Positions 46,050 to 64,000 are shown, counted from the stretch's first letter. The stretch: DNA of 64,000 nt from a virus (IMGVR_UViG_3300020576_006930:1-64000); one strand, 5' to 3'. Notes: generated by a model not told the origin, from the letters alone. Program-made: numbers and translations.

Positions 46050-46051
46050 AC

Positions 46052-47798: not shown

Positions 47799-47849
47799 AT
47801 GAACAATCGCTGGTTTAATAATATTCGTAGAAGGAATGGCGGAGGCTGA
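47799..47849 (+). CDS. Leader peptide 1, MNNRWFNNIRRRNGGG
   Basis: 16-codon ORF between promoter (TTGACA 47745, GATACT 47767) and terminator; below the ORF-track cutoff. Confidence 0.85.
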   Translation: MNNRWFNNIRRRNGGG

Positions 47850-47910
47850 ATAAGCCTACCGATAGCGAAAGCTTTCGCCCGCCACTCCAAAAGGGTGGCG
47901 GGCTTTTTGT
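47837..47910 (+). promoter_or_regulatory. Transcription attenuator 1 heading the Trp/Arg/Asn/Phe/Ile tRNA operon
   Basis: Terminator GCCCGCCACTC-caaaa-GGGTGGCGGGC-TTTTT (47877-47908); leader TGGCGG (47837-42) is complementary to its 5' arm. Confidence 0.85.
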
Positions 47911-47929
47911 TTGTTCTTTGTCAATTTAT

Positions 47930-48003
47930 ATGTAGTTCGTATAATGGTATTACCTTCCTCTCCAAAAGGAAAGACAGGGGTTCGATTCCTCTACTACATG
48001 CCA
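47930..48003 (+). tRNA. tRNA-Trp (CCA)
   Basis: TTCCT-CTCCAAA-AGGAA, G73. Confidence 0.85.
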
Positions 48004-48013
48004 ATTTTTAGAT

Positions 48014-48088
48014 GCTCTTATAGTGAAATGGACATCACGGGACCCTGCGAAGGTCTAATTCCAAGTTCGAATCTTGGTAAGAGCGCCA
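48014..48088 (+). tRNA. tRNA-Arg (GCG)
   Basis: GGACC-CTGCGAA-GGTCT. Confidence 0.85.
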
Positions 48089-48097
48089 AATTTAAAT

Positions 48098-48174
48098 GCA
48101 CCCGTGGCGCAACTGGACAGCGCAAACGGCTTCTATCCGTAAGGTTGGGGGTTCGACTCCCTCCGGGTGTACCA
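48098..48174 (+). tRNA. tRNA-Arg (TCT)
   Basis: ACGG-CTTCTAT-CCGT. Confidence 0.9.
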
Positions 48175-48355
48175 ATTTTGAGTGTGTGACCGATAAAGCT
48201 TAGTGGTAGATCGGCCTTGAACTGAGGCTCGGAACACATAGGTTCAAATCCTATCGCGCTCACCAATTTCAGATGAACGAAAGTTCCCTAGTCTTGTGTA
48301 TTGGGCCGGTAAAAACTTTAGATTCCGGTATCTGATAAGAATTTTGTTTTAGGAT

Positions 48356-48431
48356 TCCTCTTTAGCATAACTGGTAATGCAGCACACTGTTAATGTGCCC
48401 TATGTTGGTTCAAATCCAACGGGAGGAGCCA
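48356..48431 (+). tRNA. tRNA-Asn (GTT)
   Basis: GCACA-CTGTTAA-TGTGC. Confidence 0.9.
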
Positions 48432-48492
48432 ATTTTAATAGCATAAAAAGTAGTAATTTTTCACAGGTAGTATATACTTATACTTGTGTGCT

Positions 48493-49089
48493 ATGAATAA
48501 AATATTACTAAAAAGATATGTTGATGAAGGACTTTCTATAAATGACATTTGTAAGAAGGTAGGTAAGGGAAACACCAGTATAAGATACTGGTTAAAAAAA
48601 TATAAACTAAAAACAAATTGGAAAGGTTCATTGGAAAGGAAAGTGCCAGATAATGAATTACTAAAAATAGCAAAAAATTCAAAAAGTTTTACTGATTGTT
48701 TGTTGAGAGTGAACGGAAATGCTGGCGGAGGTTCGTATTACTTTTACAAGAAAAGATTAGAAAAATTAAATTTTGATTTTTCAATATACAAAAATTTAAA
48801 CAGAATACCACTTTTTTTGGTTAGAAGCAATCAAGAAGCTATACAAAGAAAAAGAGGGTATAGGATCAGAAGAGAAAAATTACATTTGTATTTAAAATAC
48901 AATAATGTGGAATATAAATGTAGTAAATGCGGAATCTGTGAGTGGGAAGGGAAAAATTTGTTATTACATATTCATCATAAAGATGAAAATTCACAGAATA
49001 ATAAATTGGACAATTTATGTTATCTTTGCCCAAATTGTCATAATATACATCATTATAATGATGGTAAATTGGCTAACAAACTAATCTAG
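48493..49089 (+). CDS. HNH homing endonuclease with N-terminal HTH
   Basis: KCSKCGICEW...LHIHHKD.N..NN..NL..LCPNCH; stop codon lies inside tRNA-Phe. Confidence 0.85.
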   Translation: MNKILLKRYVDEGLSINDICKKVGKGNTSIRYWLKKYKLKTNWKGSLERKVPDNELLKIAKNSKSFTDCLLRVNGNAGGGSYYFYKKRLEKLNFDFSIYKNLNRIPLFLVRSNQEAIQRKRGYRIRREKLHLYLKYNNVEYKCSKCGICEWEGKNLLLHIHHKDENSQNNKLDNLCYLCPNCHNIHHYNDGKLANKLI

Positions 49090-49146
49090 TGAAAGTGCAT
49101 CCCTGAAGAGGATGAAAGCTCCGGGCAGAACGGAGGTTAGCCACCA
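49071..49146 (+). tRNA. tRNA-Phe (GAA), atypical D and T loops
   Basis: GGCTAAC/GTTAGCC-A-CCA; CATCC-CTGAAGA-GGATG. Confidence 0.75.
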
Positions 49147-49156
49147 ATTTTTAAAT

Positions 49157-49231
49157 CCCGGGATAGTGTTAATGGAAGCACGTTAGATTGAAACCCTAAC
49201 AGAGACGGTTCGAATCCGTTATCCGGGACCA
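49157..49231 (+). tRNA. tRNA-Phe (GAA), second copy
   Basis: TTAG-a-TTGAAAC-c-CTAA; canonical T arm. Confidence 0.7.
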
Positions 49232-49295
49232 ATTACGTAGTTTTTCTACTTTCTACGACCCCAGCGTAACGGCTGAATCAAATAAAGTGGAATAT

Positions 49296-49370
49296 GCACC
49301 CATAGTGAAATGAATATCACGTTGCGCTTCGAACGCAACATTTCGGGTTTGAATCCTGATGGGTGTACCA
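49296..49370 (+). tRNA. tRNA-Arg (TCG)
   Basis: TTGCG-CTTCGAA-CGCAA. Confidence 0.9.
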
Positions 49371-49629
49371 ATTTAGTAATGTAGTTAAAAGGTAGAATAT
49401 GGTCCGTGGAGGATAATAAGTTGCAACTTAATTCATTGACTATGCCGGCGGCGGGTTTGTCTGCTAATCGGTTGTGAGGTTCAAATCCACACCATTACTT
49501 TAATTTATGACCGAAGACGATGAGATACTGATTGAATGTAGTTGTTGCCATGACCTGTTCGATTTGGAACAGATGCGGATGAATGAAAATGGAAAATCGG
49601 TATCTTGTGATGAGTGTCGATCTGAAAAT

Positions 49630-49705
49630 GGTAGTGTAGCTCAGTTGGCAGAGCGTAGTCTTGATAAGGCTCGGGTCGGGGGTTCGACTCCCTCCACTAC
49701 CACCA
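49630..49705 (+). tRNA. tRNA-Ile (GAT)
   Basis: Loop TT-GAT-AA, canonical arms. Confidence 0.9.
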
Positions 49706-49717
49706 ATTTTTAAAAAC

Positions 49718-49794
49718 GCAACGGTAGCTCAATTGGATAGAGCGTTAGCCTCCGAAGCTAAAGGTTGTGGGTTCGACTCCCGCTCGTTGCACCA
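49718..49794 (+). tRNA. tRNA-Arg (CCG)
   Basis: TTAGC-CTCCGAA-GCTAA. Confidence 0.9.
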
Positions 49795-50227
49795 AAATAA
49801 AATGAAATTGGAATTAATCAAGCAAAAAAACAAAATATCATCGTATAAAATTAATGGCGAACACACTGAGTATGAGGTAGAGGGTCATGTTTTTTATGTA
49901 AAAGGGTACCCAGCATTTATGATTTTGGAGAATGGCGAAATCAATCCCATTACACCTAATGGAATGGTTATCTATTATGATAATAAAAAAGAATGCGATG
50001 AATGGTTGAAAAATGAAGCAATTAACTACCGAACAATTTAAAAAATACATGTCGAACCCATTGACCAATGACGAAAAAGTTCGAAGTTGGTGTTCATTGC
50101 CGGACAATCGTTACTACACAGTTTCGGTTTGGCCTGAGGCAAGAGCGGGGCAGGTAAGAGTTTCAGAAAACTTGTTTCGGGATGTAAAAGTAAAGAAGAT
50201 ATCCAAATCGGATCAACCATAAAAGTT

Positions 50228-51262
50228 ATGAACATTCTATTGGACAGAGACACATTCCGCAATGGGGTGTTCATGCGTGACAAAAACAAATGTGTCATTT
50301 GTGGGCAACCGGCTCAGGATGCGCATCACATTATTGAACGTAGATTATTTGACGATGGTGGTTATTATCTTGACAATGGCGCTTCATTATGTGCGACGTG
50401 TCATATTAAGGCCGAATCTACTGAGATTAGTTGCGAAGCTATCAGAGCAGGAGCTGGAATCGTGGACATTGTTTTGCCGCTTCACTTATATCGGGATAAT
50501 GTTTACGATAAGTGGGGCAACATAATCAATGTCAATGGCACGCGGCTGAAAGGCGAATTATTCGGTGATGTCAGTGTTCAGAAGATTTTGAAACAGGGTG
50601 GAGTTCTTAGCAAGTTTGTGGATTATGTAAAATATCCCCGCACTTACCATTTACCTTGGAGTGACGGTTTGACGAATGATGATCGGGTAATGACTCCGGA
50701 GGATTTAAAATTTTTAGAAGATAGTTCGGTGGTCGCTACGGAAAAAATGGATGGAGAAAATACCACCATTTATACCGATTACATTCACGCTCGTTCGGTG
50801 GATAGTCGTTCACATTGGACACAATCATATGTGCGCCAATTACAAAGTAAAATTGGACATGATATCCCAAAGGGTTGGCGGATTTGTGGTGAGAATCTTT
50901 ATGCCAAACATTCCATCAAGTATGATAAATTGGAAGATTTCTTTCTGATGTTTTCGATTTGGGATGACAAAAATCAGTGTTTGAGTTGGTTGGAAACCGT
51001 GGAATGGGCAAAGTTGTTGGGATTAAAAGTGGTAGACGTGTTCTTTGTCGGGCCGTGTTGGAAAGACACGGTACATAAGCTATATGAGGGCAATTCAAAA
51101 CATAAGCCCATTGAAGGTTATGTGGTCAGGACATTGAACGGTTTCTCTTATGGTAATTTTAGAAAATGTACTGGTAAATTTGTTAGAAAAAACCACGTCC
51201 AGACCAGTCACCACTGGCGGTTTGAGAAGATCGAAAAGAATGAGTTATCGTCCGTAGGGTGA
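50228..51262 (+). CDS. HNH domain fused to an ATP-dependent RNA ligase
   Basis: N-terminal CVICG...DAHHI...NGASLC..CH; C-terminal KYPRTYHLPWS, TEKMDGEN (motif I), GENLYA, EGYVVR, K.VR. Confidence 0.85.
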   Translation: MNILLDRDTFRNGVFMRDKNKCVICGQPAQDAHHIIERRLFDDGGYYLDNGASLCATCHIKAESTEISCEAIRAGAGIVDIVLPLHLYRDNVYDKWGNIINVNGTRLKGELFGDVSVQKILKQGGVLSKFVDYVKYPRTYHLPWSDGLTNDDRVMTPEDLKFLEDSSVVATEKMDGENTTIYTDYIHARSVDSRSHWTQSYVRQLQSKIGHDIPKGWRICGENLYAKHSIKYDKLEDFFLMFSIWDDKNQCLSWLETVEWAKLLGLKVVDVFFVGPCWKDTVHKLYEGNSKHKPIEGYVVRTLNGFSYGNFRKCTGKFVRKNHVQTSHHWRFEKIEKNELSSVG

Positions 51263-51423
51263 ATTTTAAATAAACTAATCGTAAAAAAGTTTCGAAAGTT
51301 GTTGACGAAAAGTTAAAATGGTATATACTTATTCTTGAGTTGAGACGGCATCGGTAAAGACAACGAATAAAAAACGGTGCTTGACAACAAAGAATTTCGG
51401 TGTACAATATACACCATAAGAAA

Positions 51424-51483
51424 ATGAATATTAGTTCAAAACATCAATATAAGGATAGTGAACCAGCAGGAGGCGGTGCATAA
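51424..51483 (+). CDS. Leader peptide 2, MNISSKHQYKDSEPAGGGA
   Basis: 19-codon ORF after promoter TTGACA 51381 / TACAAT 51403 and before a terminator. Confidence 0.85.
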   Translation: MNISSKHQYKDSEPAGGGA

Positions 51484-51550
51484 AGCACATCCTGAAGCGT
51501 AAAGCTTTATGACCGCCATCCTCTAATACAGGGTGGCGGTTTTTTATTTT
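51469..51550 (+). promoter_or_regulatory. Transcription attenuator 2 heading the Lys/Tyr/Asp/Gln/Glu/Asn/His/Pro/Ser tRNA region
   Basis: Terminator ACCGCCATCCT-ctaatac-AGGGTGGCGGT-TTTTT (51512-51545); leader GGAGGCGGT (51469-77) is complementary to its 5' arm. Confidence 0.85.
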
Positions 51551-51763
51551 TAAGAGTAGTAAAGTCAAGCTGGACTTAAAACGGAGTATGAGATAGCACT
51601 CAAGAAACGCTGTTCGTTGAAACCGAAAGGTAGTGAACGATAAATCCATAAAGCAGACGGCTCACGCGATTCCGTCGTTTATGGCTTCAAAAAGAAGGCG
51701 TGATTGAGTGAAAGCCCACCCGGAAGTAGGCTTGACGTTAGCGGAGAGACGCTTTTTAATTTC

Positions 51764-51849
51764 GCGAGTATGCGCCGAGCTGGCCGATGGCACCGGACTT
51801 TTAATCCGGTATATAAACACCGTGGGTTCGAATCCCACTGCTCGCACCA
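51764..51849 (+). tRNA. tRNA-Lys (TTT), enlarged variable region
   Basis: CCGGA-CTTTTAA-TCCGG. Confidence 0.8.
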
Positions 51850-51902
51850 TTTTACTTTTAAGATTTTTTGTATTTTAAAAGTCATTCATGATATTTATAT
51901 GT

Positions 51903-52370
51903 ATGAAGAAATGCTATACATGCCAACAAGAAAAAGAAACGGTGGAATTTAACAAAAGTAAATGTCGTAAAGACGGGTTGAATTCTATTTGTAAAGAATG
52001 TTCTAAAAAACGGAGTAAACAATATTACAAGGAAAATACCGAATATCATAGAAAAGCGGTCTATCGAAATAAACAACAGTACGGAGAACAATTGAGGGGC
52101 TGGATATCCGATTTAAAATCGGGAGGGTGTTGTATATGTGGTGAGAAAGAGATATGTTGTTTGGATTTTCATCATATCGATTCAAAAACAAAAGATTTTG
52201 CTATTTCAAGTTTGGTATACAATCTATCCAGAAAAAAACTAGGGAATGAATTGACTAAGTGTGCAATAGTGTGCTCAAATTGTCACAGAAAAATTCACAT
52301 AGGCGTTTTAAAAAACCCTATTGATAAAAAACTAGAAAACATATCCATACCGAATTTAACAGTGAATTAA
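51903..52370 (+). CDS. HNH endonuclease (paralog of 16303-16758)
   Basis: CYTC...CKEC; CCICGE...LDFHH...KCAIVCSNCHR. Confidence 0.85.
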   Translation: MKKCYTCQQEKETVEFNKSKCRKDGLNSICKECSKKRSKQYYKENTEYHRKAVYRNKQQYGEQLRGWISDLKSGGCCICGEKEICCLDFHHIDSKTKDFAISSLVYNLSRKKLGNELTKCAIVCSNCHRKIHIGVLKNPIDKKLENISIPNLTVN

Positions 52371-52399
52371 TTTTCAAACGAATTCAAAACAATTTTAAT

Positions 52400-52476
52400 G
52401 CAGTTGAAGCCATGATGGACCGGCACCCGGCTTTTACCCGGATATGGAGTGGGTTCGATTCTCACCGACTGCACCA
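52400..52476 (+). tRNA. tRNA-Lys (TTT)
   Basis: CCGG-CTTTTAC-CCGG. Confidence 0.8.
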
Positions 52477-52485
52477 ATTTTAAAC

Positions 52486-52562
52486 GCGCTCGATGCTACA
52501 GTGGATCGGCACCCGGCTCTTACCCGGATATGATGAGGTTTCAACTACCTCCGAGCGCACCA
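52486..52562 (+). tRNA. tRNA-Lys (CTT)
   Basis: CCGG-CTCTTAC-CCGG. Confidence 0.75.
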
Positions 52563-52918
52563 ATTTCTGATTCCCCCATATCAACAATCACCGTTTTTCC
52601 CAACGGTTCAAATTTGTTGACCAAATCCGGATTTATTTCCCGTGGGGGAATCAATTTTAATTTAACAATTTTGCCTCAGTCCAGACGGCCTACTTCTAGT
52701 TAAGCACAGACGAAGTAATGAAGAAATGGAGTCTGGGTGCTCTGAGTGCAAATTCATTCGCCAGTTATCTAATCTGGTGCCAACAGCAATCAGGAAAATT
52801 AAAACATTCGTAGGAAGCTATGCTGACCGCAAGAGTGTTTTGGTTGGAATGGTTGGGCCGCTGTTCTGAAAACAAAATTATACGGGGCCGTTCACACCCC
52901 GTTGACAAAGTGAACAAT

Positions 52919-53005
52919 GGTAGGGTATCCAAATGGCTAAAGGACACGGTCTGTAAAACCGCCGCTCAAAAGGCTTTGTGAGTTCGAATCTCATCCCTAC
53001 CACCA
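52919..53005 (+). tRNA. tRNA-Tyr (GTA)
   Basis: CGGT-CTGTAAA-ACCG, long variable arm. Confidence 0.9.
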
Positions 53006-53010
53006 ATTTA

Positions 53011-53064
53011 AAGATGCCAACAGCAAACAAAAATTCAATTATAATGAAAAAAAGATGGCATCTT
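53011..53064 (+). ncRNA. ACAGCAA-scaffold small RNA
   Basis: AAGATGCCA/TGGCATCTT stem, ACAGCAA, inner TTCA-ATTATAA-TGAA hairpin. Confidence 0.65.
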
Positions 53065-53103
53065 GTTTTAGAACCCTCTATTTATATGGGAGAGGTCTAA
53101 TTT

Positions 53104-53529
53104 ATGAAAAAATTTAATTGTTTATATTGTAAAAAAGAAAAAACACACCAATCGTCTCAGTCTATGGGGAAATATTGTTCGGCAAAATGTCAACAAAATT
53201 TTCAAATAGAGAAAAAAATGGAAAGTGGAAATTGTTTGTATACTCCGGGAATAAGAAATTGGTGTTATAATAATTTAAAACAGGTATGTGATGTGTGTGA
53301 TACGGGATTAATATGGAATAATAAACCGCTGAGATTACAAGTCGATCACAGAAATGGAAATTCCAGAGATAACCGTAGAAATAATTTAAGAATGATTTGT
53401 CCCAATTGTCACACCCAAACCGAAAATTGGGGGATAAAAAACGCATCTCCTGAGGGAGTTGAAAAAATGGTAGTTGCGGGGAAATTAACACAAAAGAATT
53501 TTTGGTCATATAAAGTAATAGTAACCTAA
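53104..53529 (+). CDS. HNH homing endonuclease
   Basis: KYCS.KCQ; CDVC...LQVDHRNGN..DN...NLRMICPNCHTQT; stop codon inside tRNA-Asp. Confidence 0.85.
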   Translation: MKKFNCLYCKKEKTHQSSQSMGKYCSAKCQQNFQIEKKMESGNCLYTPGIRNWCYNNLKQVCDVCDTGLIWNNKPLRLQVDHRNGNSRDNRRNNLRMICPNCHTQTENWGIKNASPEGVEKMVVAGKLTQKNFWSYKVIVT

Positions 53530-53577
53530 CGCACTGTCTATGCGAAGTCCGGGGAGCGTAACCCCGTATGACCGCCA
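53504..53577 (+). tRNA. tRNA-Asp (GTC)
   Basis: GGTCATA/TATGACC-G-CCA; CGCA-CTGTCTA-TGCG. Confidence 0.8.
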
Positions 53578-53763
53578 TTTTGATCTGTTGGCTAATCCAC
53601 CTTGCTACGCATTGAGTATGGATCGTAGAGCACGCGGACGGTTTGAATGAATCCCGAACAAGTAGGCTACTAACCGAAAAGTAAGGCTGAGTGAGAAAAC
53701 CGGTGCTTGAAACTGATGATTGGCTTAGTAACCAATAAGCGTTCTGACAGATTAATTTTTTAT

Positions 53764-53837
53764 ACCCCTTTGTTGTAGTGGTAGCAAAGTTCTCTTTGAA
53801 AGAAAAAGTGGTGGTTCGATTCCATCAAGGGGTGCCA
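53764..53837 (+). tRNA. tRNA-Gln (TTG)
   Basis: TTCT-CTTTGAA-AGAA. Confidence 0.8.
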
Positions 53838-54041
53838 ATTTAATGGGTGTACAGTAGTTCAATAAATGGGATAGACATAAAAAGTCTGGGTAGCGCCTCA
53901 GTCCAATTATGGAACCAGTATGAAATCCCCTAGTCGTTGAGAATCTGAGAACACAGAATGAGATAGACGTTCACGCTGAACGGAATATTGTGAAATCCTC
54001 TAGTAAGTGATACGCTGTAAATCAGCGGCCCCATATTTTAT

Positions 54042-54115
54042 GTTCCGGTCGATTAATGGTAGGTCACTGCCCTTTCAAGGCGGGAGCGGGAGTTCGATTC
54101 TCCCTCGGAACACCA
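54042..54115 (+). tRNA. tRNA-Glu (TTC)
   Basis: CTGCC-CTTTCAA-GGCGG. Confidence 0.9.
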
Positions 54116-54123
54116 TTTTTAAT

Positions 54124-54196
54124 GCTCCTATGATGTAATGCAACATCTTCGGCCGATTACCGAAGCTTGGTGGTTCAAGTCCACCTGGGAGTACCA
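54124..54196 (+). tRNA. Atypical tRNA-Ile-like (GAT) with C33
   Basis: TTCGG-CCGATTA-CCGAA; full cloverleaf with ACCA. Confidence 0.55.
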
Positions 54197-54202
54197 ATTT
54201 AC

Positions 54203-54279
54203 GGCCCCATCGTCTATATGTGTTAGGACATCATGTTCTCAACATGAAAAATAGGGTTCAAATCCCAATGGGGCTACCA
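54203..54279 (+). tRNA. tRNA-Glu (CTC)
   Basis: TCATG-TTCTCAA-CATGA. Confidence 0.85.
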
Positions 54280-54361
54280 ATTTCGAATTCCCTGAGTGAG
54301 TCCGCAATTCTATACCGTGATATTCGACGGTGAATGTGGGTTAAACACACCGGGCATTTAC

Positions 54362-54437
54362 GGCCCCGTCGTCTAGAGGACAAGGATTGCGGATTCTCAA
54401 TTCGCGGAACTCGGTTTGATCCCGAGCGGGGCTACCA
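54362..54437 (+). tRNA. tRNA-Glu (CTC), second copy
   Basis: GCGGA-TTCTCAA-TTCGC. Confidence 0.85.
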
Positions 54438-54848
54438 ATTTACATGGGCTTTTTCCATTCCTCAGACTCTTTCAATTCTTTTATAAATTGTTCGTGACGA
54501 TTAAGCCCGACAAGATTTTCATATAATTTTAAGGCTTCAGCGGACATACAATTTACTGACGCATTTTGGATTTTCTTTTGGGTGGTGTATTTTGATGAAT
54601 TTGTAATCATAATTTTTTCAGTGATATTCCGTTTACGGGATGTAATATCAAGGTGGGAAGTATATCTCATTCTTGAAAAGAAGATATGGGGTTAAACCCC
54701 ATTAGGTAATACCCTACTAATCCAATTTCCATAAGCTATGAACCAACAAATAAACAACGGCATTAGATGGTTGTAACGGGTGCGAAGTCCGACCCAATGA
54801 ACATAATTCATTGGTGTAAGCCAGACATAGTAAAGTGGAAAGATTTAT

Positions 54849-54923
54849 TCCAGAGTAGTGTCAAAGTAGCACACGCGGCTGTTAACCGTGTTAGTGTTGG
54901 TGCGAGTCCAACTTCTGGAGCCA
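54849..54923 (+). tRNA. tRNA-Asn (GTT)
   Basis: CGCGG-CTGTTAA-CCGTG. Confidence 0.85.
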
Positions 54924-55192
54924 ATTTTTGTTGCGCTAACGGGCTAGAGTAAAGTAACTCAGTCGCCTTTATAAGCGAAAGATAGTAGGTTAACGCCCTA
55001 TATGACCCGCAGGTATCTCTAAGACATGAGGTCGCAACAAAACGATTTTCAACACCGATAAATAACGATGCTGTTATATTTCCGGACCAACGGTTGACCG
55101 ACAAAAACAGCATCGGTTTTGAACCTATTAGTTCAACGCATGATGAATGTGAGGATGAGAAGTTAGCTCACGATAAAATCTTCTCCACTTTT

Positions 55193-55247
55193 AAGATGCC
55201 AACAGCAACCAAATCACTTGCCTGTTAAGCAAAAAAGATGGCATCTT
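55193..55247 (+). ncRNA. ACAGCAA-scaffold small RNA displaying an Asn-type anticodon loop
   Basis: Same outer stem as 53011; inner TTGC-CTGTTAA-GCAA. Confidence 0.65.
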
Positions 55248-55772
55248 GTTTTTATGGTCGGCGTCTGAATCTGCTGGTGAGGTTAGCTTCATAGGATGAT
55301 AATAATGACGAGTTAACCCGGCCGCCGATTTTTTGAAGGAACTGGCGGACTGAGATGTGTATAGTTGAGGTCCGATAGACAATGCCAGCCTTCAATTTTA
55401 TGGTGATATTCATTTGATTTTTTTGTTTTGGTGATGATATTTATCAGCAAATACGTCGTATTTACGATGTCAAAACAAAGGTTTAAATGAAAAAATATCA
55501 AGAAATTAGTCATTATATCAAATTTAAAGCTCGTAATGGAGATGGAGAAGTGATATCGATAGTAGAGGATGTAGATAAAGCGAAATTTATTTATGATTCT
55601 TTAGAAGAAATCCCCCCGTTCGGTCCAGATAAAATTATGGTAGAAAATAATAGAATGTGGAAAGTAATTAAACAAGACGGATTAACTATTCTAGCCAAAA
55701 CTCTAAAATAATTTAGTAAAAAATACGGATTCAAATCGGTTTTTCCTCCCCATCGATAATACTTATTGGCAT

Positions 55773-56678
55773 ATGAAAATGGGAGTCGTAAAATGTAGTC
55801 GGTGTCGTAAAGAATTCGAAAAACCCCAATCTGAGATTAAGAGAATGGTAAAAAGAAAATGGGTAAACCATTTTTGTGGTACCAAATGTCTTTCTGAATT
55901 CGGCGTGGTGTTTCGGAAGAAACTTTCCGATGAAAGAATAAAATCGTATTATCTTTCTCCTAAGAAATGTCCAAATTGTGATTCAGTCATTCCACACGAA
56001 GACAAATCACAAAAAACATATTGTTCATCAAAATGTTTCGGTATCCATTCTCAAAAAAACGGTGGCCATTGTCATTGGTCAGATGAAGATAAAGAACGCT
56101 TACGGCAACAAGCCAAAAACAATCCCAAATTTGTTCCGGGGTGGAATAGAGGGAAACGGTATGCTCCAACAATTACATTAAAATGTAGAAATTGTGGGGG
56201 TGATTTTATACAAACAATTTCCAAAATAAATTCTAATAAAACGCAAACTTGCGGAAAAGAATGTAGAAGAAAATTACAATCTATCAATTTACTTAACCAG
56301 TACAAAAATGGGAAGAAAGTATATGGCGGAACAACCAAGTGGTTAAAATACAAAGATATAAAAGTTCAGGGCTCATATGAATATAGAACTTGTCAAATCT
56401 TAGACCGTTGGCAACAGGTCAATAAAATTAAAAAATGGGAATATACAAACGATAGATTTGAGTATATAGGAACTGACGGGAATAACCACAATTACTTGAT
56501 GGATTTCAAGATATGGAATAACGATGGTTCTTTTTATTATCTAGAAACTAAAGGATATGAAAAAGAAAATGATAGGTTGAAATGGAAATCTGTCGTGGAT
56601 GCCGGATACAAATTGGATGTGTGGTTTGATCCTGATATTAGACAGAGAGAAAAAGAATTTATGGAGGTTGTAGCATAA
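55773..56678 (+). CDS. Zinc-finger repeat protein with a C-terminal PD-(D/E)xK nuclease domain (homing endonuclease-like)
   Basis: Three CxxC...CxxxC modules; GSYE...YLMDF...YLETKG; stop codon inside tRNA-His. Confidence 0.75.
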   Translation: MKMGVVKCSRCRKEFEKPQSEIKRMVKRKWVNHFCGTKCLSEFGVVFRKKLSDERIKSYYLSPKKCPNCDSVIPHEDKSQKTYCSSKCFGIHSQKNGGHCHWSDEDKERLRQQAKNNPKFVPGWNRGKRYAPTITLKCRNCGGDFIQTISKINSNKTQTCGKECRRKLQSINLLNQYKNGKKVYGGTTKWLKYKDIKVQGSYEYRTCQILDRWQQVNKIKKWEYTNDRFEYIGTDGNNHNYLMDFKIWNNDGSFYYLETKGYEKENDRLKWKSVVDAGYKLDVWFDPDIRQREKEFMEVVA

Positions 56679-56741
56679 CTGGTTAATGTCCTAGGTTGTG
56701 AACCTAGTTTTATGCGGATTCGAATTCCGTCAACCTCCCCA
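56663..56741 (+). tRNA. tRNA-His (GTG) with G-1
   Basis: CTAGG-TTGTGAA-CCTAG; G-1:C73. Confidence 0.9.
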
Positions 56742-57052
56742 ATTTCAGCGGACTCAGTCGCATAGCTACGACTGGATACAACACAACTGAGCCACGACGC
56801 GGAGATGAAGCTCGAGCTTTAATAAGTCAATGTGATCGCAGTTGAAACCGCTGTCGTATTTCCAATGGAATGAGTATCTGATTAAAAACACAAGGAGAGA
56901 GATTGTTCCGCTGCAGCGGACAGACCTCCGTGAAATCCTCCCGAAGTTTAGGAGAAAGTTCCTTTTTAGTTTACGCCAGGTTAGGGATGGATTATTCCTC
57001 ACGGAAGTCTCAATTGACAAGCGAGCGTCCAGAAACCCACTGGCTGAAATTT

Positions 57053-57165
57053 TAGATGCGGACAGCAAGCAATCGATTATGTCAAACTCTTAGTGTGGGT
57101 TCGAATCCCATGTATGGTGTAATGGTAGCACAGGAGTCCCGCAAGGGAATCAAAAAACGCATCTA
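57053..57165 (+). ncRNA. ACAGCAA-scaffold RNA carrying a permuted tRNA elbow (T arm before D arm)
   Basis: TAGATGCG/CGCATCTA stem; GTGGG-TTCGAAT-CCCAT then TGGTGTAATGGTAGCAC, closed by ACTCT/GGAGT. Confidence 0.7.
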
Positions 57166-57351
57166 GTTTTTCGAGTAGTAATAATAGGAAGTGACCAATC
57201 GGTATCCGCCTCATGAATGTAACCCAGGACTGGTAGCCTGTCGTGCGAGCAAGTTAATCCCTCGCTGGTGAAAGGGTAGGACAAGTTGATACCGGCGTAT
57301 TATTATGAGCGGTAGTTGGGACCTGATAAGTTCACAAACCATTCGATTTAT

Positions 57352-57425
57352 GGCCCATTCGTCTATCAGCAGGACCACTCGTTTTCAGCGAGAAGAGGCC
57401 GGAGCGTCACCGGCATGGGCTACCA
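57352..57425 (+). tRNA. tRNA-Glu (TTC)
   Basis: CTCG-TTTTCAG-CGAG. Confidence 0.75.
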
Positions 57426-57779
57426 CTTTCGGCAGTCATAGGGAGTCATGACCTTAGAACACTCATGTTGTGTTATGCTCTGAAATAAAGTCACATTAAA
57501 AATTAAGATAAATACATGTATAATCAAAATAAGTAGATGTGATGGACACGTAAGAGAGACTGCGACCATTTCGGGTATGTCTTGGGAGAGTTATCGGGTT
57601 CAATTCCCGAATAGTCCACCATACGGGCTATGGGATGGTCCTGTCGCTAGCGACAAAAGCGGGTTCGATCCCCGTCATATCCATTGATTTGACCCGGAGA
57701 ATATCCGATAAATACGACACTTGGTTGGGTGCTATTCCAGAAGCTTAAAATACCCTTCAAAAGACGGGTCACCAATTTC

Positions 57780-57854
57780 GCAGTATTGATGCTAGTGGCA
57801 ACATGCGGCTTTCCCAAAGCTGATTCGTCAGTTCGATTCTGATATACTGCTCCA
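57780..57854 (+). tRNA. tRNA-Gly (CCC)
   Basis: CGGCT-TTCCCAA-AGCTG, U73. Confidence 0.85.
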
Positions 57855-58130
57855 TTTCGCCGGTTTGGTCTAACCACCTCTTAATCGGGGACGGACGGTT
57901 TGGAAAGACGGCCGGGTTAGCCCCGGACAACGTAGGTTCAAATCCTACAATCGGCTCGAATTTACGGGGTTACAAGGAAAGGTTCGGTAAACGAAAACTA
58001 GGCCCATTTCAACAAACGCAAGCTCCGGAATAATGTACAACCCTTGCCTGAGATGGATTGGTGGTGAACACCATTTAAGTAGACCGTTACTGATCAGCGG
58101 TTCGATTCCGCTTATCTCCACCATTTATAA

Positions 58131-58206
58131 CGGAGTGTCGCCTAGTGGTATGGCGCTTGTTTCGGGAACAAGAATAACGGGAGTTCGATTCTCCCCACTC
58201 CGACCA
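58131..58206 (+). tRNA. tRNA-Pro (CGG)
   Basis: CTTGT-TTCGGGA-ACAAG. Confidence 0.9.
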
Positions 58207-58212
58207 GTTTAT

Positions 58213-58289
58213 CGCCTGATCGTTTAAAAAACTAAGACACCGACCCTTGGGGTCGGAAATGCCAAGGTAAAGTCTGGCAAAGGCGACCA
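58213..58289 (+). tRNA. Degenerate Pro(TGG)- or Gln(TTG)-like tRNA
   Basis: C1:G72 and A73; CCGAC-CCTTGGG-GTCGG; poor T loop. Confidence 0.4.
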
Positions 58290-58446
58290 TTTATGCCATC
58301 CAGGATCGGGTGCAATTCCCTTTACACAGAGTACTCTAGCGTGAATCTGTGGGTGGCCCATTTTAACGGACTTGTCTTTTGATAAGGATGTAATGTAACC
58401 AGACACCAAATCGTGGGCCTGATAATCCCGTTCCGTTTTACTATTT

Positions 58447-58878
58447 ATGAATATGGAGTACAAATCGTTTTTCAATTATCTAAAAGAAGGTGTGGAAAAA
58501 TATCTCATTTGGCAGCCGACCGGAATTTTCCGGGCGATGGTTGATTATTTAGATACTTTAACCTCATCAAACAACGAGGTCTATCGGGGAGCCTCCGATA
58601 AGGAAATTTCTATATTGAAAAATACCAAAGTTTTTAAATCCAACGGCAAAGGTAATACCCGGGATAATGCCGGGACATATGTTTCCGCAGATATCCATTT
58701 AGCCGCCGCTTTTGCGCTGAGATATTACCGGGATGGCCACGGAGGTTCGGTGCTCGTTTTAGAAAAGAGCAAATTACCTGAATTAGTCGCCCGCGATCCT
58801 GGAAATTTTACCGTGGACCATGTTCCACTGGAAGCGGTAAAACGCATCATCAATTTAAAAGACTTTACCGGTCGATGA
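58447..58878 (+). CDS. Possible ADP-ribosyltransferase-fold protein
   Basis: VYRG...YVSAD...A..FA...VL pattern; weak. Confidence 0.4.
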   Translation: MNMEYKSFFNYLKEGVEKYLIWQPTGIFRAMVDYLDTLTSSNNEVYRGASDKEISILKNTKVFKSNGKGNTRDNAGTYVSADIHLAAAFALRYYRDGHGGSVLVLEKSKLPELVARDPGNFTVDHVPLEAVKRIINLKDFTGR

Positions 58879-59137
58879 AGGAAAGACAATACTGGCTGGG
58901 GTGAGATTCCCCTCATAAGGCCAATTATTGGAAAGAGAAGCACCTTCCAGGGTGTGATGGTACGACGGTACCGTAGTGAAATCCCTTCGTCAAATGTAAA
59001 AATGAGAGAGATAATAGATGGGAACCTGATGTGGTGTAATTGGCAGCACAGCCTTTAAAGGCAGGTTGAGGTTCAATTCCTCACGACTAGGCCATCTTAA
59101 TGAACATTCGTGAAATCCTCATCTAATTTTTTAGTTC

Positions 59138-59214
59138 GGGGTGGTAGCTTAATTGGTTAAAGCGGCAGCCTGTCACGTTGTAGACTGGGGGTTCGAGTCC
59201 CCTTCATCCCGCCA
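59138..59214 (+). tRNA. tRNA-Asp (GTC)
   Basis: GCAGC-CTGTCAC-GTTGT. Confidence 0.9.
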
Positions 59215-59545
59215 TTTTATGATTGAGTCCGGAGCCATCGTCCGCGGTGATGGCCGGAGAGTTCCAAACTGAACACTCAATCGCCACTTTAGTTACAAAG
59301 AGAAGATGGAGCTGGTAATAATTATTGTCATTATATTACCCCTCTCCGTGAAAGATGATTCCTGTGTAGAAAGCCAGGACAGATTGTAGTTGCACTGGTA
59401 AATGGTGCAATCGATTGGTTTGACAACCAAAGCAAAGAATACCTTGCATAAAGGTCGGAAACTATAACAACACCTAACTAATGTTGTAGGAGGTTCCCGT
59501 AAAGGTGCTTGTAATATAGCCTAGCAATCCTTTGTAACTTATTTT

Positions 59546-59682
59546 GCCATGCTAGTTCAATGTAGAACCCATCTCTTAAAAAGCCGATAGTCTCCCTGAA
59601 CGGAGAAGTTAGTGGGGTGTTTGCCCTGCGATGTAATTAGGCCAGATGAACTGCTAGTGCCAAGTCTAGCGCATGGCTCCCA
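59546..59682 (+). ncRNA. tRNA body with a ~60-nt insertion in the anticodon loop
   Basis: GCCATGC/GCATGGC acceptor, D arm, CATCT...AGATG stem, T arm. Confidence 0.6.
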
Positions 59683-59883
59683 TTTTGGACAACCCTGGCC
59701 TTTGACGCCGGGGGCTGATGAAGGACGAGTCTCTCCGATTGAATATCGCAGGTGTTAGACCACTTAGATATTCGTTTCAGTGTCCGATCTTTTTTCCAAA
59801 TTTTTTATTGATTAGTTTAAAGTATATAACTCAATTCATACTTGAACTATTACGATAATCCTAATCAATTGATTTAACAAATT

Positions 59884-60732
59884 ATGTATAAAACCAACCG
59901 TGCCTTTACGCTCATCGAACTTTTAGTCGTCATTGCCATAATAGGCATCCTGGCGGTCATGCTGCTGCCCACCTTGACCAGGAGCAAGAATACCGCTAAT
60001 GGTATAATCTGTATGAATAATGGGCGCCAACTTTCTCTGGGTTGGTTAATGTATGCACACGATAACAACGAACGAATTGTCTATGCGAGTGATGATGGTC
60101 TGGGTCCAGTTAATCCACTAAATCAATTTGCCTGGACACAGAGTCATATGGATTATGACCCAAACAACCAAGCAAACTGGGATATCACCATTGATATTAT
60201 GGTCGGCCCCCTGTGGAGTTACAATCGTAACGCTAAAATTTACAAATGTCCTGGAGATAAATCCGTCGTCTTGGTAGATGGGGTAGAAAAGCCACGTGTA
60301 CGTAGCATCTGTATGAATTTGTATATGGGAGGTTATGCTGGAACCGACGGTGGATCGTGGTATGTCCGGCAAAACTATGTTTATTTGAAAACCACCGATT
60401 TAAATCTACGCACCTCCCCCGGCCCAGCTAAAACCTTTTTGTTTTTGGATCAGCGTGAAGATACAATCAACTGGGGAAATTTTCAAGTTCATATGATTGG
60501 TTACATTAACCATAATGGTAGTATGTATGGTTTTTATCAAGATATGCCTGGAATGTATCATAATAACGCAGCCGGGATAAGTTTTGCGGATGGGCACTCG
60601 GAAATTCACAAATGGAAAGATCCCCGGACGACGCCGCCCATTCAGAAAAACATCGCCGTAATTGGATATGTGGAATCCCAATATAACAAAGATGTTGAGT
60701 GGCTACAAGAACGAGCCACTAGGCCAAAATAA
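59884..60732 (+). CDS. Prepilin-type N-terminal methylation domain protein with H-X9-DG C-terminal motif (PVC type)
   Basis: RAFTLIELLVVIAIIGILAVMLLPTL; YKCPGD; YHNNAAGISFADGHSE. Confidence 0.9.
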   Translation: MYKTNRAFTLIELLVVIAIIGILAVMLLPTLTRSKNTANGIICMNNGRQLSLGWLMYAHDNNERIVYASDDGLGPVNPLNQFAWTQSHMDYDPNNQANWDITIDIMVGPLWSYNRNAKIYKCPGDKSVVLVDGVEKPRVRSICMNLYMGGYAGTDGGSWYVRQNYVYLKTTDLNLRTSPGPAKTFLFLDQREDTINWGNFQVHMIGYINHNGSMYGFYQDMPGMYHNNAAGISFADGHSEIHKWKDPRTTPPIQKNIAVIGYVESQYNKDVEWLQERATRPK

Positions 60733-60738
60733 TTTTAT

Positions 60739-60894
60739 GCTCGTGAGTAAGGAACTACCCGTTGAACTCCCAGATCGTGCCCAAGCTAAGATCTTCGAAT
60801 CTGGTGGTGGACTGCTGCTAATCCCAGTGAAGTTACCATTTTGGAGGAATGCCTCATGCACGGATTGTCAGTTCGATTCTGACTGCGAGCTCCA
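60739..60894 (+). ncRNA. Enlarged tRNA-like RNA (156 nt)
   Basis: GCTCGTG/TGCGAGC-T-CCA; GTCAG-TTCGATT-CTGAC. Confidence 0.65.
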
Positions 60895-61052
60895 TTTCTT
60901 TTATATTTATATAAAGTCAAGAGAATAATTTATGGAAAGTGAAATGACAGGATCATTAACAAAACCGAAGCGTGAAATACCGTGGTATGATCCAGAGTGG
61001 TATCAGGAATGGCTTCGGCAACAAAGACAAAAAAACATTTCCATCAATCAAA

Positions 61053-61130
61053 CAGAATGTAGTGTAGCTTGGCCAACACGCTAGTCTGGGGGACTAGAAA
61101 CCGGGAGTTCAAATCTCCCCATTCTGACCA
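61053..61130 (+). tRNA. tRNA-Pro (GGG)
   Basis: CTAGT-CTGGGGG-ACTAG. Confidence 0.9.
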
Positions 61131-61354
61131 TTTTATGAAGCAGAAAACACATAAGAAAAACCGGTTCCATCTAGTCGCTTTTTTAAAAGATATTGTCCGG
61201 CAGCCCATTGTAAAAAAAGCCTTGGGTTATCTTGTGGTCGCGTTGATCGGCTATGTTGTCAATCACATCCAGACCGATTCGACTATTAATAAGTTAAAAA
61301 CGGATAATACCGATTTAACATGGGCAGTGGACTATTTTCGTAAGTAACATTTAC

Positions 61355-61429
61355 GGACCTATGGTGAAATGAATATCACTGGGATTTCCTAAATCTCTAT
61401 TTCCGGTTTGACTCCGGATAGGTCTACCA
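61355..61429 (+). tRNA. tRNA-Arg (CCT)
   Basis: GGGAT-TTCCTAA-ATCTC. Confidence 0.85.
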
Positions 61430-61480
61430 ATTTACCATTGACTTTATGTCGTGGTTCATATATACTTATTTGTTGAATAT

Positions 61481-61568
61481 GGAAGGTTGTCAGAGTGGTA
61501 ATGAGACGGTCTTGAAAATCGTAGCCAGGGTAAAACCTGCGGGGGTTCGATCCCCTCACCTTCCGCCA
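61481..61568 (+). tRNA. tRNA-Ser (TGA)
   Basis: ACGGT-CTTGAAA-ATCGT, long variable arm, G73. Confidence 0.9.
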
Positions 61569-61625
61569 ATACACGGTTCGAATATTATTTTTAATTTTTT
61601 TCGAACCCCTCTTATACTTATTGAC

Positions 61626-62129
61626 ATGAAAGAAAACATTTTAAAGTTAAGAGCGGATGGCAAATCTTACAACGAAATACGAAAAATATTGGGATGTTCA
61701 AAAGGAACGATAGCATATCATTGTGGATTTGGTCAAAAAGAAAAATTAAAAAGTAGAGTTAAAAACTATAAAAAAACTCTTCCGGGAATTTTAAAGAGAA
61801 AAAAGGATAATTTTTCTTTTTCAAATGGAAAGAGAGTTGGGAGAGGGAGACGAGTACATCTGGCATTCTCTCTTAGAGATTTTGTAAAAAAATTACAACT
61901 CAACTCTAAATGTTATTTAACCGGAAGAAAAATTGATTTATATCAACCAAAAACATATCAATGTGACCATATTATTCCTGTCAGCAAGGGGGGAAAATCT
62001 ACATTAGATAATCTGGGATTGGTGTGTAGAGACGCAAATATGTCTAAATCTGATATGACGGTTGATGAATTTTTTTCTTTATGTAAAGAAATTTTGACCA
62101 ACAATGGATTCAAGGTTGAAAAAATTTAA
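61626..62129 (+). CDS. HNH endonuclease with N-terminal HTH
   Basis: G.SYNEI...LGCSKGTIAYH; CYLTG...DHIIPVSKGG.STLDNLGL. Confidence 0.85.
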   Translation: MKENILKLRADGKSYNEIRKILGCSKGTIAYHCGFGQKEKLKSRVKNYKKTLPGILKRKKDNFSFSNGKRVGRGRRVHLAFSLRDFVKKLQLNSKCYLTGRKIDLYQPKTYQCDHIIPVSKGGKSTLDNLGLVCRDANMSKSDMTVDEFFSLCKEILTNNGFKVEKI

Positions 62130-62135
62130 TAGTTT

Positions 62136-62223
62136 GGAGGGTTGCTAGAGCGGTAATAGGATGGCTTGCTAAGCCATAGCCTGGGTAAAACCAGCACAGG
62201 TTCGATTCCTGTACCCTCCGCCA
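62136..62223 (+). tRNA. tRNA-Ser (GCT)
   Basis: ATGGC-TTGCTAA-GCCAT, long variable arm. Confidence 0.9.
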
Positions 62224-62231
62224 CTTTATAA

Positions 62232-62305
62232 GGTCGCTTAGTTTATCGGCAGAATAATTCATTCACACTGAATAGAGAATGGTTCAATTCCATTAGTGAC
62301 CACCA
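62232..62305 (+). tRNA. tRNA-Val (CAC)
   Basis: ATTCA-TTCACAC-TGAAT. Confidence 0.85.
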
Positions 62306-62307
62306 AT

Positions 62308-62381
62308 GGGTGATTAGTATAAAAGAAAAACAATTCACTGACACTGAATAGTCGATGGAGCGTTACCATCATCGCCCACCA
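62308..62381 (+). tRNA. tRNA-Val (GAC)
   Basis: ATTCA-CTGACAC-TGAAT. Confidence 0.75.
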
Positions 62382-62835
62382 ATTTTAAAAAAGTTATGAA
62401 ACCAAACAAAAAAGTTATGAAACGTTACTTGGGTACGGAAGAGATCAATGCCCAGTGTTATCCTTTTGATAAATCCAAAAATCTACGACTTCTTTCTCAC
62501 GACGAATTAAAGCGTTGTAAGAAGGGAGTCGTTTTGTTTTCGGTAGGCGGTAAAAAGATTGTCGTTGGAACGGATGTTATAGACACCGACACTACGGTTT
62601 TCGGCAAATCCAAATATGGTCAGTAAAATCAAGACACGTTACAAATATGTAATTGCGTTTGCTTCCGGAATTTTAACCGGAGGATCGACTTTATTTTTCT
62701 GTTATTATTACCAATTCATTAACTATCCCGCAGTCGCTTTTGTCCATTGGCCAAATCTCATCGCCTTGGGAGTGGTGTGTTTGTTTATTTGGAGCATAAT
62801 ATTTTTATACAATCGCACGAAGATCGTCAAATCTT

Positions 62836-63567
62836 ATGAAAACCATAACTATCGCTTCCATTGCCGGCAACAAGATAAATGAACATGCGGAGGCGATTTT
62901 AAAGACCGCTTCGAAAATTCCCCACCCCTGTCAAATGCTTTTGTTTTCGCCTCAGAGGCCAACAATTGACATGCCGTGGGTGTTTATTCCTGACTGGGGA
63001 ACGGATCGTCAATTATTTTTTGAAGAAATTGGATTGTTTACTCTTTACAAGTTACCCAATTATATTCACACGGATGTTTGTATTATTGTTCAAGCGGACG
63101 GTTATGGGGTGAACAAAACTGCTTGGTCGGATGAATTTTTGGATTGGGACTATATCGGAGCACCCTGGCCATTATGGGAAACCTTGTCTTTGAAAGGCAA
63201 TCCTTTGCGCCGGGTTGGTAGTGGGGGTTTTAATCTGCGCACTAAAAAATTTTTGAACACCTCACTAACTTCTCCGAAACCAGCCATTGGGGTTGGTGAA
63301 GACATATCAACCCCACGCATCCAGTATAAACATTTCGAATCCTGTGGTTGTCGTTTTGCTCCTGTCCCCGTCGCGTTAAAGTGGTGTATGGAACATAAAT
63401 TGGAAGATTATCCCCGTTGGAAGCCAGAAAACAGCTTCGGGCAACACGGATTTTATCACGGCGTGCCAATGGCGGAAGTATCACCTTTAAAAGCATTTTA
63501 CTTCGCATGTCGCAAATCCCTAAAACAGGGCCGTCTAAAACGTTTCAATCCTCTAAAAAAGATATGA
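62836..63567 (+). CDS. DUF5672-like glycosyltransferase-related protein
   Basis: QADGY..N...W.DEFL.WDYIGAPW...VG.GGFNLR.KKFL...ED. Confidence 0.75.
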   Translation: MKTITIASIAGNKINEHAEAILKTASKIPHPCQMLLFSPQRPTIDMPWVFIPDWGTDRQLFFEEIGLFTLYKLPNYIHTDVCIIVQADGYGVNKTAWSDEFLDWDYIGAPWPLWETLSLKGNPLRRVGSGGFNLRTKKFLNTSLTSPKPAIGVGEDISTPRIQYKHFESCGCRFAPVPVALKWCMEHKLEDYPRWKPENSFGQHGFYHGVPMAEVSPLKAFYFACRKSLKQGRLKRFNPLKKI

Positions 63568-63953
63568 CCAACACCAATAAACTTTCAATAATCAATGTCA
63601 TTTTAACCTGGACGACACTAATATTAGTATTCATAATGCTCATTGCTCAGGCTACAGCTATTCAACACGAAAGAACCATAAACAACCAATTGTCCAAACG
63701 GTTGTCAGAATTGGAAACGAATCAGTTAGCTATTGTCATTACCTGGGAAAAACTTTCCAAGGAAAACGATCAATTTAACAAGCTATTTATTGAAAAAGTG
63801 AAGCAAGCGGATGATATTCTTGACAAAAAAATCTCTCAATTACAGGAATTCGATTTCGTTGTGGTTGAACGACTTAAAGCGGTTTCTGAAGCGCAAAACG
63901 CGGTGATAAAAACAATAATCGGGCTATCAATCACAAATAGTGTTGACAAATGA
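63564..63953 (+). CDS. Membrane-anchored coiled-coil protein
   Basis: N-terminal transmembrane helix then heptad-like sequence; ATGA overlap at 63564. Confidence 0.6.
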   Translation: MTNTNKLSIINVILTWTTLILVFIMLIAQATAIQHERTINNQLSKRLSELETNQLAIVITWEKLSKENDQFNKLFIEKVKQADDILDKKISQLQEFDFVVVERLKAVSEAQNAVIKTIIGLSITNSVDK

Positions 63954-64000
63954 CCCGGCGTAATATATATTGTACACATAAATGAAGAACAATCTTCCAA

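Follow-up and report, generated by a model that had tools for sequence, protein, structure and literature searches.

Phage transfer RNA (tRNA) genes are usually regarded as constitutive additions that serve codon usage or as decoys against tRNA-cleaving defences. What, then, is the function of a short open reading frame (ORF) and a strong intrinsic terminator that stand between a promoter and a long series of such genes? This question is raised by positions 51302-51549 of a 64,000-nucleotide stretch of viral DNA (IMGVR_UViG_3300020576_006930:1-64000, hereafter the window), which forms the first 64 kb of one 139,132-bp virus record (G000) with 43.6% G+C. An original prediction, made from the sequence alone, described the element as a second attenuator (att2), whose leader samples one codon for each downstream isoacceptor. 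Sequence analysis and RNA folding models suggest that the element is probably a ribosome-mediated leader-peptide transcription attenuator, which would place the tRNA supply of the downstream block under negative feedback.

The promoters, leaders, and RNA elements of att2 and att1 and the tRNA genes of their blocks lie on the + strand. The main promoter of att2 (51381-51408; TTGACA-16-TACAAT, 11/12, sigma70-like) is preceded by a second promoter-like site (51302-51329; TTGACG-16-TATACT, 10/12, sigma70-like). Transcription from the main promoter is expected to start near 51415, about 9 nt ahead of the leader ATG. The leader ORF (51424-51483) comprises 19 sense codons and a TAA stop codon (51481-51483), in which codons 2-13 (51427-51462) specify Asn Ile Ser Ser Lys His Gln Tyr Lys Asp Ser Glu and codons 14-19 specify Pro-Ala-Gly-Gly-Gly-Ala. 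The promoter, the leader, and the downstream tRNAs were found where they had been predicted, with all elements of att2 present. The leader does not, however, end after the 15 codons of the prediction, since Gly-Gly-Gly-Ala and TAA follow Pro-Ala. The context ahead of the ATG resembles that of the other genes of the phage, which generally lack a Shine-Dalgarno sequence, as the leader does; its long ORFs are A/T-rich ahead of the ATG, and its promoters are sigma70-like.

The leader is followed by an intrinsic terminator (51511-51549) with a 12-bp GC-rich stem (51511-51522/51530-51541), a 7-nt loop, and a T-run, the hairpin alone amounting to -19.9 kcal/mol. A moderately structured spacer of about 220 nt (51550-51763, z-score -2.4) separates it from the first tRNA. 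When the 20-kb same-strand tRNA region was scanned, the two clearly strongest terminator-like hairpins on the + strand were those of att2 and of its sister unit att1, and each is located between a promoter and tRNAs rather than at an operon end. An alternative explanation for att2 is that its terminator closes the operon of the RNA ligase gene and that the tRNAs have a promoter of their own that escaped recognition, as at loci L012, L019, and L028. The ligase ORF does end at 51262 without a strong terminator of its own, and the terminator-promoter-tRNA order exists in related phages. However, two promoter-like sites lie between the ligase stop codon and the terminator, the promoter scan lists none at 51541-51764, between the terminator and the first tRNA, and the ORF, its codon match, and the antiterminator would be left unexplained. 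This explanation is extremely unlikely.

About 20 same-strand tRNA genes follow the att2 unit, and those at 51764-62378 were used for codon matching, with tRNAs called by ARAGORN and Rfam and the pairs verified one by one. The leader codons AAA and AAG are read by two tRNA-Lys(UUU) (51764-51849 and 52400-52476) and by tRNA-Lys(CUU) (52486-52562), while AGT and TCA are read by tRNA-Ser(GCU) (62136-62223) and tRNA-Ser(UGA) (61481-61568). CAT, TAT, GAT, GAA, and AAT are read by tRNA-His(GUG) (56664-56741), tRNA-Tyr(GUA) (52919-53005), tRNA-Asp(GUC) (59138-59214), tRNA-Glu(UUC) (54042-54115), and tRNA-Asn(GUU) (54849-54923), respectively. All of these pairs had been predicted and are borne out, as is the pairing of ATT with an atypical Ile(GAU)-like tRNA (54124-54196) that has C instead of U at position 33. 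The predicted match of CAA with tRNA-Gln(TTG) rests on a 74-nt tRNA (53764-53837) that ARAGORN calls Ser(UGA). This tRNA has no long variable arm, and a register shifted by one base from that of ARAGORN yields a canonical loop, a one-base junction, and the anticodon UUG; its sequence thus makes a Gln(UUG) identity plausible.

The claims for the remaining codons fared less well. CCA had been tentatively assigned to the Pro group, but it cannot be read by the in-window tRNA-Pro(CGG) (58131-58206) and tRNA-Pro(GGG) (61053-61130); its cognate, tRNA-Pro(UGG) at 66047, lies outside the window. The cognate of GCA, tRNA-Ala(UGC) at 66135, is likewise outside. The window indeed holds no tRNA-Ala, as had been stated, yet three such genes occur just beyond it on the same contig, where they and tRNA-Pro(UGG) occupy 66047-67575 behind other strong promoters. 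The three Gly codons of the leader cannot be read by tRNA-Gly(CCC) (57780-57854).

Readability was scored under standard wobble in 12-codon windows. Codons 2-13 are all readable (12/12) by the tRNAs of 51764-62378, through 11 distinct anticodon classes. Among 200,000 windows of twelve codons drawn from long ORFs of the phage itself, full readability was reached in a fraction of 9.5e-4, and full readability with at least 11 classes in none (0/200,000). Stop-free shuffles of the same nucleotides were fully readable in 1.5e-3 of cases, and in about 3e-6 when at least 11 classes were also required. Stop-free windows of the genome, taken in any frame and on both strands, numbered 161,763; 46 were fully readable, and the only one that also attained at least 11 classes (1/161,763) was the att2 leader itself. 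The same uniqueness test gives 8 of the 161,763 windows when the Gln reading is omitted and 42 when both the Gln and the odd Ile reading are omitted. Against the tRNA block of att1, only 2/12 codons of the att2 leader match.

The RNA was folded as a full transcript, as a stepwise nascent transcript by minimum free energy (MFE), and with a modelled ribosome footprint, and dinucleotide shuffles were used for significance. The complete att2 transcript folds as the terminator preceded by two hairpins (-40.4 kcal/mol, z-score -4.8). The first of these, P1 (51471-51493), extends over the last codons and the stop codon, is the first to form during transcription, and is in the model a candidate pause hairpin; the second is a small hairpin of the terminated conformation (51494-51508), which has a counterpart in att1 and whose 3' half otherwise joins the antiterminator. 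The antiterminator is a helix of 20 bp with 3 one-base bulges. Its 5' strand (51465-51486) begins at the end of codon 14, takes in the last five codons and the stop codon, and extends 3 nt past the latter, and its 3' strand (51504-51524) covers the whole 5' arm of the terminator. When this arm has emerged, the nascent MFE flips from P1 and the small hairpin (about -18) to the antiterminator (-30.7); only when the 3' arm is complete, and not before, does it flip to the terminator conformation (-37.7). Antiterminator and terminator are mutually exclusive in folding. Paired with the 5' arm, the leader forms a duplex of -17.1 kcal/mol, a value equalled in 3/1000 dinucleotide shuffles.

In the footprint model, the antiterminator stays intact with the ribosome on any of codons 2-13 and is lost, at all but two positions, with the ribosome farther along, stop codon included. 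The boundary set by the footprint is also where the tRNA-matched codons (2-13) give way to the six codons without a match (14-19). Since the two boundaries coincide, codons 14-19 are best read as being under RNA-pairing constraint, and the model would thus make Pro-Ala-Gly-Gly-Gly-Ala a part of the RNA switch rather than a set of sensing codons.

Taken as an attenuator, att2 would work as follows. RNA polymerase would start at the promoter or promoters and transcribe the 19-codon leader, whose 3' end, including the stop codon, would pair downstream and sequester the whole 5' arm of the terminator. With smooth translation to the leader end, the ribosome would cover the antiterminator strand, the terminator would form, and transcription would stop before the tRNAs. 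A stall at any of codons 2-13 would allow the antiterminator to persist and the polymerase to read through into the tRNA block, such that att2 would combine about 11 decoding activities in an OR gate. Phage tRNAs would then be made while the respective codons are decoded slowly and would be shut off after the supply has been restored. We infer leader translation, the sense in which the switch operates in vivo, pausing at P1, and the downstream reach of the control.

A leader RNA placed before tRNA genes could also sense tRNA or a small ligand directly, as the T-box does, in which case the ORF would be irrelevant. The downstream genes are indeed tRNAs, and the T-box is a precedent for leader RNAs that read tRNAs; as in the proposed att2 mechanism, its choice between terminator and antiterminator hinges on tRNA status. 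However, the T-box binds one uncharged tRNA directly and without translation, and its single specifier offers no account of an 11-codon panel. The att2 leader is too short for a Stem I platform, and no cis-regulatory Rfam family, the Trp, His, Leu, and Thr leaders and the T-box among them, was hit over 47700-64000, whether the gathering threshold or a limit of E up to 1 was applied. Direct sensing is therefore very unlikely.

The attenuator reading of att2 gains from its paralogue. The att1 unit (47745-47910) consists of a promoter (47745-47772), a leader of 16 codons (47799-47849), an antiterminator (47833-47842/47879-47888), and a terminator (47877-47903) that ends 27 nt ahead of tRNA-Trp and therefore leaves no room for a promoter. 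The two units are alike in architecture and have a common -35 box, Gly-codon motif, and terminator arms. The 12 codons ahead of the Gly tail of att1 use only Asn, Arg, Trp, Phe, and Ile, and the tRNAs between att1 and att2 are Trp, Arg, Arg, Asn, Phe, Arg, Ile, and Arg. All 12 codons (12/12) are readable by this block, a result attained in 0/200,000 and 0/300,000 controls. A promoter-like site at 47918-47945 (11/12) was rejected as a false positive, as the D-loop of tRNA-Trp (47930-48003) contains its -10 hexamer.

To find the design elsewhere, 80 IMG/VR loci that surround homologues of the RNA ligase were scanned blind, and further regions of three complete uncultured phages (335-368 kb) were then added. 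The leader at L006 matches its block (Phe, Asp, Ile, Glu, Glu, Arg, His, Arg) at 16/18 residues. The leaders at L014/L032 and L022, which precede blocks of 20-31 tRNAs, are homologous and differ by synonymous changes and in-frame indels, a coding signal. The phages of L014 and L022 (G001 and G003) contain second leaders (L240, L248) that spell Leu, Ser, Thr, Tyr, Pro, Ala, Val, Gly, and Ile and precede blocks of just those tRNAs (25/27 and 30/31). The two leaders of each phage split the amino acids as its two tRNA blocks do (G003: 30/31, 36/41). In a 7 x 7 matrix of leaders and blocks, the best fit was always with a leader's own block or with the homologous block of a related phage.

The cultured Salicola phage SCTP-2 (MF360958.1) has three annotated hypothetical proteins that precede tRNA blocks, namely gp335 (L252 2536-2670) before Asp, His, Met, Ile, and Met; gp351 (L252 9695-9826) before Lys, Phe, Trp, Val, Ser, and Gly; and gp364 (L252 14742-14855) before Ser, Glu, and Thr. 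Each is enriched in the amino acids of its own block (-log10P of 3.5, 3.0, and 4.5, respectively, against 0-0.2 for the other blocks), and all three finish with a segment that repeats the 3' arm of their common terminator, which occurs closely behind the ORFs (at about 2725, 9890, and 14910 of L252). Judging from these sequences, the three proteins are probably attenuator leader peptides for the tRNA blocks next to them. A late leader segment that copies the terminator 3' arm, and is thus complementary to the 5' arm, occurs in L006, L014, L022, L248, and SCTP-2. The duplex between leader and 5' arm was equalled in 0, 2, and 2 of 1000 shuffles for L006, L014, and L022, respectively. At least five phages share the design, and in these the peptide and the tRNA set change together. 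Independent recurrence in att1, the three huge phages, and SCTP-2, together with the mutually exclusive antiterminator, supports the original prediction of an attenuator with a panel of codons.

These comparisons bear on two further explanations. In the first, the leader is a generic sensor of translation or growth that reports overall ribosome or elongation capacity, and the codon match reflects the codon usage of the phage. Single codons confer weak specificity, and with 13 amino acids (69% of usage) represented in the att2 block, ordinary peptides would often fit it fairly well. Nevertheless, full readability was rarely attained by composition-matched shuffles or real ORF windows, and leaders of the same phage differ sharply while each fits only its own block (att1/att2, G003-A/B, G001-A/B, and gp335/gp351/gp364 of SCTP-2), all of which renders a generic sensor unlikely. 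In the second, att2 is a constitutive leaky terminator or a small-RNA gene of ~130 nt, in which the ORF is untranslated and the tRNA match coincidental. The leader without a Shine-Dalgarno sequence and the 5' leader of only ~9 nt from the main promoter would suit this explanation, and scans of composition alone do yield false positives (L076, L035). Against it stand the uniqueness of the att2 window in the genome, a significant antiterminator that overlaps the stop codon, the in-frame conservation between L014 and L022, and the recurrence in at least five phages with covarying peptide and tRNA set; the missing Shine-Dalgarno sequence, moreover, is genome-wide here. This second explanation we likewise consider improbable.

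Unit calls in the scan rest on the combination of position, terminator, antiterminator, and the match to the own versus other blocks. Two composition matches were rejected: L076 7025-7123, which is an Arg-rich off-frame ORF within a gene, and L035 1867-1965, which is the C-terminus of a gene. Binomial or composition P values alone are therefore insufficient. At L012, L019, and L028, strong promoters follow the terminator and the ORFs match poorly, which is an ordinary terminator-promoter-tRNA arrangement. A degenerate pattern of the terminator shared by att1 and att2 retrieved 29 loci, all of them ordinary terminators without a downstream tRNA. Synteny of the RNA ligase yielded no close homologue of att2, with best identities of 60% in IMG/VR and 68% in metagenomes (mostly the same contigs), and relatives of the ORF at 51888-52370, sought as a further route to such homologues, were not found.

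The four units of G001 and G003 hold, behind the attenuator terminator and ahead of the first tRNA, an RNA element of ~60-200 nt that is conserved (L014 15250-15462, L022 11690-11889, L240 4680-4760, and, on the reverse strand, L248 about 2590-2670). The element has no Rfam match, and no convincing homology emerged when the att2 spacer was aligned with those of L014 and L022, which are conserved.

Several points weigh against att2 as a tRNA-sensing attenuator. The block covers 13 amino acids, and the match is consequently weak when amino acids alone are scored (16/18, P about 0.05); the significance hangs on the codon-level and distinct-class statistic, which was modelled on the description in the original prediction. 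The Gln match requires a re-read tRNA and the Ile match an atypical one. Each leader codon is used once or twice rather than in tandem runs, and sensitivity per tRNA may therefore be low. As had been cautioned for Arg and Val, some tRNAs of the block have no dedicated leader codon, namely Arg(CCU) (61355-61429), Val(CAC) (62232-62305), Val(GAC) (62308-62378, called by Rfam only), Gly(CCC), Pro(CGG), Pro(GGG), and the two Glu(CUC) (54203-54279 and 54362-54437). Without any translation, the model predicts read-through, whereas the trp operon shows super-attenuation. A close homologue of att2 that would provide base-pair covariation for its helix was not found, and the att1 duplex is not significant on its own (126/1000 shuffles were as good).

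The reach of the control is also at issue. The caution that internal promoters may uncouple distal tRNAs stands, as promoter-like sites are located inside the att2 block at 52891-52918 and, between tRNA-Arg(CCU) and tRNA-Ser(UGA), at 61438-61466, and strong ones follow at 63943 and 65701. These four sites may drive distal tRNAs independently, both tRNA-Ser included for the first pair, and they too count against the proposal. The promoter units at 63943 (before a tRNA with a CUA anticodon) and 65701 (before Val, Pro, Ala, and others) have no convincing terminator or antiterminator and no matched leader. In the 63943 unit (63943-64000 of the window and 64001-64135 of G000), the start resembles att2. 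The strong promoter (63943-63971) is followed by a mini-ORF of 7 codons (63982-64005) that ends in TAG directly before the CUA-anticodon tRNA, whose anticodon would read TAG. This unit might sense suppressor activity.

How does the proposed attenuator relate to known ones? The ilvGMEDA leader senses Ile, Leu, and Val and the thr leader Thr and Ile; trpL, hisL, leuL, and pheL are further enterobacterial examples. These leaders and att2 have in common a short promoter-proximal ORF, an intrinsic terminator, and a mutually exclusive antiterminator, as well as the logic that a stall at regulatory codons leads to read-through and a ribosome at the stop codon to termination, with several amino acids per leader in ilv and thr. 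However, the targets of att2 would be tRNAs instead of biosynthetic enzymes, and its output would most directly restore the supply of tRNA rather than of amino acids. Its panel of ~11 codons used once or twice replaces tandem runs; no run of a single regulatory codon occurs in the mixed att2 panel, where only Ser-Ser is adjacent. This lack is a difference of variant, not of mechanism. Furthermore, att2 is phage-borne, with several units per genome that each encode a different peptide, and it has no similarity to the Rfam leaders.

The pheST operon, which is attenuated by a Phe-rich leader, offers a second parallel, as its leader peptide governs a component of the translation apparatus by the decoding of that component's own codons; unlike att2, it senses one amino acid, has a protein-coding target, and resides on the host chromosome. 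By analogy and from its sequence, att2 would thus work like the multivalent ilv and thr leaders and the pheST leader and would differ in target, codon logic, and carrier. An attenuator-like leader considered for the E. coli tRNA-Phe genes was dropped from the comparison, as the pheV promoter stands directly before the tRNA with no leader. Full-text literature searches found no published description of trp-operon-style attenuation of tRNA genes, and the words attenuator, leader, and terminator are absent from the paper on the tRNAs of the jumbo phage XacN1.

A counter-defence role is tentatively considered. The tRNAs for Lys, Tyr, Asn, His, Asp, Gln, and Glu, all represented in the att2 block, are known nuclease targets. 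Depletion of these tRNAs by host anticodon nucleases or by tRNA decay during infection could stall ribosomes on the leader and switch on replacement phage tRNAs, and the RNA ligase might be controlled likewise by att1; this extension of the attenuator reading is possible but rather doubtful. Each tRNA block would then amount to a repair module that can be induced, limits itself, and answers to its own roster of codons, with the 86-nt tRNA-Lys first in that of att2. A tRNA-Lys variant of phage T5 escapes PARIS/AriB (PMC11464382), and Retron-Eco7 degrades tRNA-Tyr (PMC12673091). The att2 block opens with three tRNA-Lys and a tRNA-Tyr, which recalls these targets, and an RNA ligase gene lies directly upstream. 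The two papers make a counter-defence role of the block conceivable by analogy; they cover what phage tRNAs do rather than how their expression is controlled, and no sensing leader is reported there. Any link of att2 to specific anticodon nucleases is speculation.

If att2 operates as proposed, phages would gauge the host tRNA pool and dose their own tRNAs by feedback. Attenuation would be extended to tRNA genes and would acquire a new logic, in which a multiplexed panel takes the place of a one-codon run. Annotators could then label small hypothetical proteins that precede tRNA arrays, gp335, gp351, and gp364 among them, as probable leaders, and such units would constitute compact natural sensors of individual tRNA availability. 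As the design is present in a cultured phage, SCTP-2, it is directly testable.

The first tRNA after att2, tRNA-Lys(UUU) at 51764-51849, is atypical: it measures 86 nt, its variable region is long and poorly paired, and its D arm is type-II-like. From its sequence, it could be a nuclease-resistant variant of tRNA-Lys. Its anticodon-arm sequence was found in 16 IMG/VR contigs, usually with tRNA-Lys(CUU) next, and forms of 85-88 nt occur in 5/16 of these (loci L164, L165, L166, L169, and L175). The 16 contigs are dense tRNA arrays of other phage types in which no matching leader was detected (best P 6e-4 in 1495 tests), and they provide a negative control.

The + strand from 45474 to 62378 carries ~36 tRNA genes by ARAGORN and Rfam. 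The array runs on beyond the window to 68016, with the CUA-anticodon tRNA, Val, Pro(UGG), three Ala, Leu, and two Ser. HNH endonuclease domains are dispersed within it (48484-49089, 50228-51262, 53104-53529, and 61446-62129). The second of these belongs to the HNH-RNA ligase gene directly upstream of att2 (50228-51262), in which the HNH domain is fused to the N-terminus of the ligase. The ORF called from 61446 overlaps tRNA-Ser(UGA), and its true start is probably farther downstream. Shortly upstream of the tRNA arrays are a transfer-messenger RNA (38624-39026) and a GOLLD RNA (40252-40719; Rfam, 157 bits), the latter with an embedded tRNA-like match at 40325-40386.

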